In this document: in pieces, positions 6,501-11,700 of the stretch
How positions within the stretch are numbered: the stretch's first letter is position 1
Layout: every line of letters begins with the position of its first letter
Source: Hydrolagus affinis
Lineage: Eukaryota
Direction: 5' to 3'
Assembly (NCBI GenBank): GCA_012026655.1
Contig: JAAILG010000114.1
Location: forward strand, 62,001-126,000
DNA: 64,000 bases
Translations under genes and position numbers: made by a program
The notes under the pieces: generated by a model
The model's database searches: none
What the model was told of the DNA's origin: nothing
The model's input: the letters and a program-made list of their open reading frames with translations, nothing else

Positions 6501-6720
6501 CAGTAAAAGCCCGCTTATCCGGTACCCTCGGGACCTGGCCAATGCCGTTAAAGCATGTGCCGGATATTCGGCTGAAAACACACAAAAAGAAAAAAAAGAA
6601 AAGAAATAATACATTGTGCCGGATAAGTTCCAGTTAATCAAATGGGGACCTTTTTTTTTCGTGGTGCCGGTAATACAGAAGTTACAGTTGATCGGGTCAC
6701 GGATAAACAGGCTTTTACTG
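6501..6720 (+). mobile_element. Tc1/mariner (Tigger/pogo-type) MITE, family A, copy 1
   Basis: TIRs CAGTAAAAGCCCG.../...GGCTTTTACTG, left TA flank; 5 related copies in the window. Confidence 0.85.
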
Positions 6721-7924
6721 TTTATGATGGTAGAATGATTTCTGCAAAAAATGTTTTCTGTAAGGCTTTATTTCAGCACATTACAAAGTGATATCCAGTG
6801 ACCTAGTTGGAGTTGACATTTTTTCTCTCTCTGGAGATTTCCTCCTTCTCCAATGGGGGCTCTTTTACTTGAGTAAAAACTGATGAGTATTATCATTAGG
6901 ATCCTGGGGAGGGAGGGGATAATAAGTGTCTGATTTATGGAAATTGTGGTGTGGTGGAAAATTTGTACAGATTTGTTTTTTTTCTGACTAAACTGAGGTC
7001 CCATCTATCTGCCTGTTCAGAAAGACATTTAAAGATATCATGGAACTACTCGGAAATGGGAATTCTTCATGGTATCCTAGCCATCAATCGCCCGGATAAA
7101 ATTTGTCATTAACTTCGTGGCTGCTTGCGGGAAATTATTGTATACAGGTCGGTTGCTATAATTGTTGCAAAATACATAGTTGGTACATTTTTCAGTAAAT
7201 CTGTGCTGTAATCAAATGCAAGGATTATTATATTCAGGTACTTTGTACATAGCATGAAAATGAAAGAGTGCATAAATTCGAGGCTGTTTTTCTTGGTGAG
7301 AATTTTTTTGTTGCATTGCTTTATTTAAAATGTTGATGACTTGGATTACTGCAGCCCTATTCCGAAGCGTTTGTGCAACACTGTTGTGTTGACCATTTCC
7401 TTTAAGCTACCGAGAACAAGAGCTAAGGGGAGGGGCGAGAAGTAAGTGTTAATGAGGGAGTATGATCTTGACAAACCTAGACTTGAGAACAAGAGCATTG
7501 CTAATGCAAAGAAGGAGAAAACAAATGGGTAATTGTGCCAAATGGTGGCTGTATATATGGAGGAAAAATCTTAGGGTTTCTGAGAAACCAAAAGCAAAAC
7601 CAAGTAAGATTTGTGAAATGGATGCAGAATTGCAATGATGCTTTGCTCTTAGCTTGCTTGTACTGGAACGTGCCACTTCCCTGTTTAGTTGGCAAGTAGA
7701 ATTTTGTAATTTTGGTCCATCAGAATGGAAAACAAAACCATATTTTGAGGTAGTTGTGTGTATCTGAGTTACTGTGTAGCTTCACATTTGTTGAAATAGG
7801 ACTATGCCTTTTTAACTTGTTTCTGTTCTCTGTCCTGCTATTTCAGATTTTAATACAAGCTAAAGAACAACCCAGTCCCCAGACAAACTTCTTCATGTAA
7901 TTTTTTTGGACATTCAACCTGGAT

Positions 7925-8756
7925 ATGAAGACTGAGATTACACCTGACGCACCCAAAAGGCAGGAGAGTCCAAAGGGGGTGTTGATGAACCCTGAGCCCA
8001 TCCTGGCAACAAAAAGTTTTAGTACAGACGTTGAAATGATTGCAAGTAAGGTTGGCAATGACTATGCCCATATCTGCACTGATTCTGGAAAGCAGATAAA
8101 GGACATGAATGGAAACGGGATGGAACAGGAAAAAATGATTGTTGTCAGAAAAAAGCGTAAGAGCCAGCAGGCTGGTCCCTCAGAAACCCCAGACTCTCAT
8201 TTGAAAAATCGCCAGGATGATGTTGGTCTAAGACCTGGCATAAAACCACAGGAGCACCTAGACGATTCTTCTTTTAGTGACTGTGTTTCATCGCCTTCTT
8301 CGAGTCTACATTTTGGAGACTCTGATACAGTGACTTCAGAAGAAGAGGAAGAGGAGGTTCCAGTCCGACATCCCCAGGCAGTATTGAGTGGCACAAGTAG
8401 AACAATTCATTCAAAAATGCACAAGTGGCCTAGGTCTGAGCAGGAATCTATATCAGGGATCTTAATCAAGCGACCTTGTCTCCCAAACAGTAGCCTCCGA
8501 AGGCCTCAACCAAGGAAGAAATTTACAAAACCTAATCCCTCTCAGCGGACTCAAAAGCAGAAGGAAAGGATTTTATTGCAACGTAAGAAAAGGGAAGTAT
8601 TTGCCCGCAGGAAGTATGCCTTGCTTCAGAGTTCTAGCAGTTCAGGGGAGAATGATCTTAGCAGTGAATCCTCCTCCAGTTCTTCCACTGAAGGGGAAGA
8701 GAATTTGTTTGTCTCACGGAGTGAAAGCCACCAAAATAATGCAACAGTTGCCTCAG
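7925..8756 (+). CDS. RNF111: RNF111 first coding exon (exon 2; exon begins at 7847)
   Basis: Acceptor tttcag|7847; [11 protein letters not shown]...[14 protein letters not shown]...[17 protein letters not shown]; donor G|gtaaat. Confidence 0.95.
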
Positions 8757-11700
8757 GTAAATTTATCTTTTCTTTTGAAAGCAATAATTGAAAGCCTGAC
8801 GCTGTACAGAAGGGGGTGGGGGGAAGGGTTAACTTGGAACCTGACTCATACATATCCACATGGCCATTATACCCTATTGTGTTTTTACAGTTTAGATGTC
8901 TACATTTCAGCTGAGTTATCATAGTTTGCAAAACGCCATTATAAGTCTTCTTGCTCTCTTTGTGCTTCGATCCAGTGCAATATTACAACGGCATCAATGT
9001 TATTTGGGATCCCGACAAGCTTGATTCTCATGTTAGTTGAAGGAGATATCTTGAATTTTTAATTACAAAATGCATTATTTAAAAATACACTCCCACCCCT
9101 GGTAGTGTTAATACAGATGTTATAGTAATGTCTCAGGCAAACTAACAATCAAAAGGCATTCTATAAGGAAGAGACAGGTTGAAAATTCCAGCAAGACAAA
9201 AGTTAGATGGTGGTCAAGATAAGAAGATAGCAATGTACAGTAAAAGCCTGTTTTTTCTGTGACCCGATCAACCATAACTTCCATATAACCGGCAACTCAA
9301 AAAAAAAGTCTGCATTCGATTAACCAGAATTTATTCGGCACAATGTTTTTTTTGTGTGTGTTTTCGGCCAAATATCAGGCACGCGCTTTAACCGACATTG
9401 GCCAGGTCCCGAGGGTGCTGGATAAATGGGCTTTTACTGTACTATTTGTCATTGTATTTGTCATTTGTTCAATACTGCAACTGTGTCAACATTTTCAAAA
9501 CCTGATATTATCATTGGTACAGATGTCCAAGATTTTGTTCTCTAGGATATGAAACATCACAACAGACGTTTTTATCTAAAATTTTCAACTTTTTTGTACC
9601 ACTATGTAGATTTTCTATCAACATAGTGATAGAAAATTCCATAGCATTGGAATTTAGAAATTCTACCTTTTTTTTCCAAGCTAAGAAATTTTTCATTGGA
9701 TAACATCTAGGAATAGTCAAGACTCCAATAAATATTTTAAAACCTGAATGTGTTGATACTTTCCAATACTTGGATGCTCTTCTCATAATTACATTTTCTA
9801 ACATGACAGGGCTCTACTTTGATCTTCAACTGGGAGATCTTCAACTCCATTCAGAGACAGACCTGTGTGATATCAGCTTTAAATTTCATGGCTTTGTGGC
9901 AACTAAAATTCAACAGGAGTTCAGCCAATTCGGGAAGTTAGGATCTAGGCACAGGGTTGAGGCAACAAAAATAGGTTCCAGGATGACCATGTGAGTGGCT
10001 AACAGAACAGTTTTTCCAGTAGCTGCACAGTGGGACATGCACTCGGGCTAAACTTCAGTTCAGTTTAGTGATTGAAGCTTGCTTGGGGGAAAGCAAGTGG
10101 ACATTTCTTTGGCGGGAGGAGGAGAAATTCTAATGCTTAAAATGGTTTACTTCTTATTAAAGTTCATATGCTTTATAAGTTGTATATGCTTTCAATAAAT
10201 CAGCATTAGCAAAGGGATTTGAGTCAGTGTTTCTGCTGCAAACCATTGTTAGTGTTGCACGTTACTGGCTGCTGAGAAGACACAATAGTGACCTAAGACG
10301 GCTGCTCAGTCAACTCTCCCTCTTTGAGGGATGGCACCTCCATTTGGTGAATTTAAACTTCCACTGCTTTGTCTAACATTTACAGCATAGGTGCTCATTA
10401 ACAGTTCTGCTCTGCGGGAATGTTTAATTGTATAAGATTCTATATCTTCCAAGTACAGTAGAAGCCCGTTTATCCGTGACTCGATGAACCGGTACTTCCA
10501 TATAACCGGTTTGCCAAATAAAGTCCCCATTCGATAAACCGGAACTTATCCGGAACAATAGCGGTGGAGCATTTGTAAATGCATAAATAATAATAGAATA
10601 TTGTATTGGTTATTGTTAAAACTATCTTGCGCTTCTCACCTTTACTGGTAGATGCTGCATTTGAAGCCATGATGCTGTGCTTGAGGTTTATAGTCCAGTG
10701 ATTCTTTTTAAAATGGAAGACGCCAAGCAGGTGAAAAAAACGGCAGTGCGACTTTAAAGCCTTACTAGCAGCAAGCCGATAACCCTAGCCGATAATTCAC
10801 ATTGTCGCGCAGGTGCAGTATTTCGGTTTGCCGCTAGTAGAGTCTAGGGTTACCGGCTTACCACTAGTAAGGCTTAAAGTTGCGCTGCCGTTTTTTTCAC
10901 CTGCTTAAGGGTCCTCCATTGCAAAAAGAATCGCTGGACTATAAACCTCAACCAGTAAAGGTGAGAAGCACAAGAGAGTAGTTTTAACAATAAGTTAACA
11001 ATATTCTGTTATTATCTGTTATTATTTAGTCTTTCGGCCGCACGCTGCCCAAGTATCTGGCAGGCACTTTAACCCAGCATTGGCCAGGTCCCGCGGGTGC
11101 CATATAACGGGCTTTTATTGTATAATATAATCAGTTATAAGGGGGTGTAACCTACATAATTCCTTAACACCAATAGATTTTCTATTACTCCCTAAGTTTA
11201 TGTATTCATATACATTAACTATATAATGTATCTTTGGCTACAAATATTGTCACTACACTTGCAGTAGTATTATCCGTGGATCCTTGTGGGATGGTAAGAT
11301 ATTATAGTATTATAATCATTATTATTACAGGATTATATAATCAAATGCAAGGATTGATATGAATGTTGCTGGGCGCATAGCCCATCTTGGGTTTTCATTG
11401 TCTTATCATAGTCTTATTAGAATCCAGTCAAATGATAATGTTTAAAAATTGTAATGCAGTATGTTATTGCATTTATTTGCAGATTCTTAAAATCAGCCTA
11501 AAGTAAGAAGAGGTTTTATTTTTATTTTTGTTTTCTATAATTGAAATGCAAAGTTGTTTTTGCTTTTTAAAAAAAATTCATAGTGATATTCAGCTTGCAT
11601 TAAACACTTTTAATGTATCAGAGTGCACCTTTAGGTGCTCTATAAAGCTATGGTTTGTGTAGAAATGCCTATGGGCATATAAATAATTCGAGAACAAATT

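Follow-up and report, generated by a model that had tools for sequence, protein, structure and literature searches.

Circular RNA (circRNA) from RNF111, the gene of Arkadia, has been described in mammals. In the excerpts of published work to which all our literature statements refer, circRNF111 of human and cattle comes from exon 2, 899 nucleotides (nt) long, and the orthologous circle of cattle is RNase R resistant (PMC8415985, PMC9980459). A human table labels the exon-2 circle as an AUG circRNA, i.e., one that contains a start codon, and ranks it first of 15 RNF111 rows, with 704 junction reads; the exon-2 acceptor is used in five of these 15 rows and the exon 2-3 circle has 3 reads (PMC6487579). 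Here we analyze a window of 64,000 nt from Hydrolagus affinis (contig JAAILG010000114.1, positions 62,001 to 126,000), in which exon 2 of RNF111 lies between inverted copies of a MITE (miniature transposable element with inverted repeats). We conclude that this exon is probably back-spliced into a noncoding AUG circRNA matching the human and cattle circRNF111, with the long introns as the probable driver and the MITE pair as a probable later insertion that at most raises the output.

Two described groups of circRNAs are close to this case. AUG circRNAs are abundant, conserved, Alu-independent, and bordered by long introns (Stagsted et al. 2019, PMC6487579). In the same excerpt, translation was not detected for the class, the lengths of the tails are as expected by chance, and the DHX9 table, which has 4 RNF111 rows, does not list the exon-2 circle. 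The second group is flanked by transposons: circRNA loci common to mammals carry species-specific young transposons, which was argued to reflect convergence (Gruhl et al. 2021, PMC8516420), and newt circRNAs are enriched in flanking pairs of inverted hAT and nMITE copies (PMC11872487). Whether common circRNAs are ancestral or arise repeatedly through young transposons is an open dispute (PMC6487579, PMC8516420). Regarding cartilaginous fish, 4,558 circRNAs were reported in the bamboo shark, and RNF111 is not named in the excerpted main text (PMC7759564). We found no literature report of circRNF111 in these fish, in a search that did not cover the bamboo shark circRNA list, which may include the circle.

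Back-splice junctions of exon 2 in a close relative

An earlier note on this DNA, made from the sequence alone, had predicted a circle of exon 2 and mentioned a human circRNF111 from the same large exon; the latter is borne out by the published work, for cattle as well (PMC8415985, PMC9980459). We searched for the predicted junction in a close relative, organism A, which is 98% identical to the window in exon 2 (15 of 914 exon positions differ). The 23 runs listed include no RNA of the window's species; seven of them were examined, including five of RNA type (X4, X6, X7, X8, and X11, the last from organism B), three of which cover exon 2. The runs left out are organism D (share 0.94), three raw-read runs of organism E, and X1-X3, X5, X9, X10, X12-X14, X17, X18, and X23.

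The exon-2 donor is joined to the exon-2 acceptor in contigs of two of the three RNA-type runs with exon cover (X6 and X8), in exact agreement with the prediction. The junction contig of X6 (record 2) has 57 nt and a depth of 124, against an exon-body depth of 265, and that of X8 (record 7) has 56 nt and a depth of 103, against 229. The junction share is thus 45-47% of the exon-body depth, a rough steady-state estimate, as it relies on contig depths from one study of unspecified library type. Four letters are compatible with both sides of the joint, which we assigned to donor 8756 and acceptor 7847, exactly at the splice sites. Another contig of X6 (record 1, depth 72) joins the end of exon 3 to the start of exon 2, with 22 of 23 loose letters matching exon 3. 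It corresponds to a circle of 1037 nt and reaches 27% of the body depth, versus 47% for the exon-2 junction in the same run. These runs hold spliced RNA, since X6 lacks intron cover and the linear junction of exons 2 and 3 is present in X7.

A duplicated exon would give similar contigs. In the two DNA-size runs (X16 and X19), we found in both cases, among the 15 of 30 joints listed, unbroken intron-exon-intron contigs with one copy of the exon. Their depth is close to that of the flanks (6.8 versus 8.2 in X16, 10.1 versus 8.5-9.2 in X19), which makes a genomic duplication of exon 2 unlikely in organism A. The exon is also present once in the window's genome.

Several points weigh against our reading of these junctions. 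X7, which belongs to the same study as X6 and X8, covers exon 2 without a back-splice junction. Both positive runs come from this one study (P2), they provide assembled contigs, not reads, and they concern organism A, not the window's species. X4 has no matches and X11 no exon cover, so that they are evidence neither way. Finally, contigs cannot show topology: linear exon repetition could produce them as well, and the covalent circle is what we infer. We nevertheless regard it as hardly credible that they result from such repetition by trans-splicing, from a library artefact, or from a tandem exon duplication. The junctions (two for exon 2, one for exon 3) are placed exactly at splice sites of annotated type, a single exon copy is found both in the DNA-size runs and in the window's genome, and the cattle circle resists RNase R (PMC8415985, PMC9980459). 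Since the RNA of such a close relative shows the junction, the window's species itself likely makes the exon-2 circle.

The anatomy of the locus suggests how. Intron 1 measures about 17.2 kb from the predicted exon-1 donor at the upstream CpG island, so that both flanking introns (intron 1 by its predicted donor) exceed the 6.5 kb typical of AUG circRNAs, and the exon contains the start codon (ATG 7925). The exon-2 acceptor would lie at the end of the ~17-kb intron while the donor would have to wait for the 14-kb intron. With linear splicing this slow, the free exon-2 acceptor would be open to attack by the donor of exon 2 or of exon 3, and a stable circle would build up. As the circle takes the start codon with it, every back-splice would mean one productive mRNA fewer.

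The inverted MITE pair around exon 2

The earlier note had attributed the circle to a MITE upstream of exon 2 and a reverse-complement copy downstream, and mentioned three further copies. Four of the five elements (M1, M2, M4, and M5, Table 1) are indeed members of one family of ~200-220 nt with terminal inverted repeats of ~22 nt. The fifth, M3, has family-related ends (matches to M1 of 109 and 71 nt) but differs from a plain copy in being a variant of ~670 nt whose palindromic middle self-folds. The subfamily of M3 has a self-fold of -327 kcal/mol, which makes it a candidate hairpin for double-stranded RNA and editing in intron 2. A second copy of this type lies ~33 kb upstream of M1 (G000:C114, about 34690-35415).

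Judged by its sequence, the MITE is a non-autonomous derivative of pogo/Tigger elements (Tc1/mariner superfamily). It is short, noncoding, and of high copy number (at least 5157 first-look candidates in a genome search, 40 of which were scored), and it has the TA target-site flanks and terminal inverted repeats of this group. Of 150 DDE_1 matches, 25 loci were fetched, and 4 of these carry the terminal repeat. In two of them (L084:230-2928 and L092:540-2892), both MITE ends enclose broken HTH_Tnp_Tc5 and DDE_1 frames, as in decayed elements. The MITE thus has its ends in common with pogo-type elements of 2.3-2.7 kb coding for a CENP-B_N/HTH_Tnp_Tc5/DDE_1 transposase, and elements of the L084/L092 type are likely the family that mobilised it. 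Unlike described pogo/Tigger elements, it matched no named family, in a comparison made without a repeat library.

The position of M1 and M2 fits a role in back-splicing. The five copies lie within 16.4 kb around exon 2, with none elsewhere in the window, and M1 is the sole family copy in intron 1 of the window's genome. M1 and M2 are at 1.1 and 0.5 kb from the exon, and their total distance of 1.6 kb is within the 2.3 kb cut-off for inverted-repeat-dependent circRNAs that we took from PMC6487579. They share 77% identity over 225 nt, and the longest perfect stretch measures 21 nt. The net pairing energy computed in silico is -150 kcal/mol for M1-M2, -151 for M2-M4, -140 for M2-M5, and -95 for M1-M3, where only the ends of M3 can pair. 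Same-strand pairs gave -12 to -17 kcal/mol and 30 random intron pieces gave 0. The family has 10 copies or fragments in 540 kb of 10 other contigs, and these are clustered. A pair as close as M1/M2 has a probability of ~2e-4 per exon under uniform spacing and of 1.1-1.3% if the presence of five copies in the two introns is taken as given, values to be read in the knowledge that the locus was picked because of its close pair. Elsewhere in the genome, four copies of mixed orientation form another cluster, of 16 kb (G000:C20, about 24900-41400, L019-L021).

However, the M1 site is empty in organism A. A contig joint links 6496 to 6748 in both X16 and X19, with 120 nt on the shorter side, and the 31 letters found between these positions end, by eye, like the flank that follows M1. 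The M4 site is also empty (joint 13078 to 13284 in X19 and X7). Since M1, the only upstream family copy, is absent there, organism A forms both junctions though it lacks this pair. The MITE pair is not required for the circle, and the transposon-driven route of the earlier note is not supported as the cause, by evidence that is cross-species and not a deletion test. The simplest reading is that M1/M2 became a pair by a later insertion, likely after the split from organism A. It may raise the circle output in the window's lineage.

An alternative in which repeats keep a causal role deserves consideration. Each lineage could circularise the exon through its own young inverted repeats: the M1/M2 duplex would cause or strongly boost the circle here, M4 and M5 would compete for M2, and organism A would use other repeats. 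The proximity of M1 and M2 (P~1.2% even given the cluster) and their strong pairing in silico speak for it and against our preferred reading, and there are precedents in the mammalian loci with young transposons (PMC8516420) and in the inverted pairs of newt (PMC11872487). Furthermore, only the aligned parts of the introns of organism A were seen (5800-13600, interrupted by an unaligned gap at ~7130-7320), and this organism might carry its own inverted repeats between or beyond these parts. Beside the gap, it has in common with the window a repeat at ~6990-7135, which is there of very high copy number (depth >5000). No contig of organism A bridges M2 or M3 (15 of 30 joints listed), and DNA-size cover over M3 (low) and M2 (moderate) was set aside for this reason and because a low-complexity patch of M2 attracts unrelated matches.

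We consider this alternative unlikely all the same. Organism A attains its 45-47% junction share without M1, and intron 2 of the window contains no inverted counterpart of the repeat at 6990-7135. M1 and M2 are only 77% identical, and M2 pairs equally well with M4, which lies in the same intron. No inverted family copy was found downstream of exon 3 in the window, which leaves the exon 2-3 circle without a MITE pair there. Once M1 is set aside, we detected no inverted match longer than 24 nt between the last 7.8 kb of intron 1 and intron 2 of the window. Slow splicing of long introns therefore remains our preferred explanation, with the proviso that independence from M1 was seen in organism A, where other repeats may exist.

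Coding potential of the circles

The frame that starts at ATG 7925 would run through the exon-2 junction, giving 277 amino acids (aa) followed by 5 more. This product of 282 aa, expected by the earlier note, has the RNF111_N region, stops before the SUMO-interacting motifs (SIMs), which begin in exon 3, and lacks the RING. The frame of the exon 2-3 circle would give 321 aa with SIM1 and SIM2, again without RING. Either could act as a protein like ARK2N (ARKL1, C18orf25), which has RNF111_N homology and no RING, or as a decoy.

We regard translation as very improbable. Both frames are open, with a stop shortly past the junction; the 27 nt that follow it show no differences in the junction contigs of organism A; and the window's genome has an ARK2N-like paralog with 38% identity over 147 aa. 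A stop within 6 codons, however, has a probability of 0.26 in the local sequence, and AUG circRNAs as a class lack ribosome-profiling or proteomic support, their tails matching chance (PMC6487579). Among 80 proteins of 152-485 aa, we recognised no shark or chimaera protein, no circle-type C-terminus, and no ARK2N-named entry, and most end in apparent intron read-through. The literature matches on an encoded protein are, by their titles, reviews. In addition, ARKL1 acts through two SIMs (PMC10542384), on which ARK2N depends and which the 282-aa form does not have. The likeness to ARK2N noticed in the earlier note is therefore partial, extending to RNF111_N without RING and not to the SIMs, and its proposal of a circle-encoded protein appears weak. 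The 321-aa form would be the closer mimic. As to the paralog itself (L067:1219-1969, G000:C22759), its large start-codon exon and exon 2 of RNF111 apparently end at an identical phase-1 position.

The sponge roles reported for circRNF111 are also unlikely to carry over, as exon 2 of the window has no 6- or 7-nt seed match for the microRNAs miR-143 or miR-27.

The locus and its relation to known circles

The protein encoded by exon 2 is 97% identical to Arkadia of Callorhinchus milii, 80-89% identical to that of six sharks and rays, and at most 69% identical to that of the other vertebrates listed, which marks the source of the window as chimaera-like on protein similarity. The gene is RNF111: Pfam RNF111_N spans residues 1-276, SIM motifs are in exon 3, and RING motifs lie near 35810-36480 of the window. 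The exon anticipated by the earlier note has AG and GT borders, both supported by RNA-type contigs of organism A. Its ATG agrees with the N-terminus of the seven chondrichthyan Arkadia proteins printed (7/7). A ~17-aa N-terminal extension found in many amniote hits is missing from chondrichthyan Arkadia. Within 1 kb of the exon there is no excess of QKI or RBFOX motifs (1 QKI site), and poly(A)-type hexamers occur in intron 2 at 9727-11599.

Table 1. Features of RNF111 and MITE copies in the window
Feature	Position	Strand	Remarks
M1, pogo/Tigger-derived MITE in intron 1	6501..6720	+	flanks TA/TT; site empty in organism A
RNF111 exon 2, start-codon exon, 910 nt	7847..8756	+	AG acceptor, GT donor; back-spliced in organism A
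Start-stop upstream open reading frame (ATG, then stop), 30 nt ahead of main ATG	7895..7900	+	from sequence
Exon 2 coding part, 277 codons + 1 nt, Pfam RNF111_N	7925..8756	+	
Intron 2, 14.4 kb	8757..23172	+	linear junction of exons 2 and 3 in run X7
M2, MITE copy inverted to M1	9238..9439	-	flanks TA/TA
M3, ~670-nt long variant with ~490-nt internal palindrome	10456..11120	-	ends alone can pair with M1
M4, MITE copy, possible competitor for M2	13082..13284	+	flanks TA/TA; site empty in organism A
M5, MITE copy 0.3 kb ahead of exon 3	22634..22849	+	flanks TA/TA
RNF111 exon 3, 127 nt, SIM1 and SIM2	23173..23299	+	

The surroundings are presumably those usual for RNF111 in vertebrates. We take the gene that starts head-to-head with it at the CpG island, ~11 kb before the window, to be SLTM-like (L010, about 8770-8903, minus strand), and the exons downstream to be cyclin-B-like (~44000-47000, plus strand) and myosin-I-like (50000-61000, minus strand). 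An abundant repeat, which we assume to be of the type of a short interspersed element or the tail of a long one, occurs in both orientations at 15854-16160 and ~20 other places of the window.

A broader reading, which we put forward as speculative, is that circRNF111 is an ancestral circle of jawed vertebrates. It would have been kept from chimaeras to mammals without a common flanking repeat, diverting a considerable fraction of start-codon exons and thereby setting the dose of Arkadia, with the MITE pair as a recent, lineage-specific rheostat, and its exon 2-3 version could yield the SIM-bearing, RING-less ARK2N mimic of 321 aa. With human, cattle, and a chimaera relative having the same single-exon junction, circRNF111 extends across jawed vertebrates. 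A natural experiment on the added effect of a new inverted pair is also provided by two closely related species of which only one has the upstream MITE.

Compared with circRNF111 of human and cattle (hsa_circ_0001982), the circle has the same make-up, the start-codon exon 2 alone (899 nt there, 910 nt here), followed in the gene by an exon 3 of 127 nt. It differs in its host, a cartilaginous fish, and in the weight of the exon 2-3 circle, which has 3 versus 704 reads in the human table and 27% versus 47% of the body depth in X6. With AUG circRNAs it has in common the start-codon exon, long flanking introns, a high junction share, occurrence in several species, and a short, chance-like tail. 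The definition of that class comes from human, mouse, and fly, whereas here a proximal inverted pair exists in one lineage and its upstream half is absent in another, a difference like that between human and mouse in the proximal inverted repeats of circHIPK3 (PMC6487579). Finally, as in transposon-flanked circRNAs (PMC8516420, PMC11872487), lineage-specific inverted transposon copies surround the circularising exon, and the hAT and nMITE pairs of newt are a vertebrate precedent for pairs of DNA-transposon MITEs. The difference is that the circle is seen here in a relative without the upstream copy and, for this reason, was not created by the M1/M2 pair.

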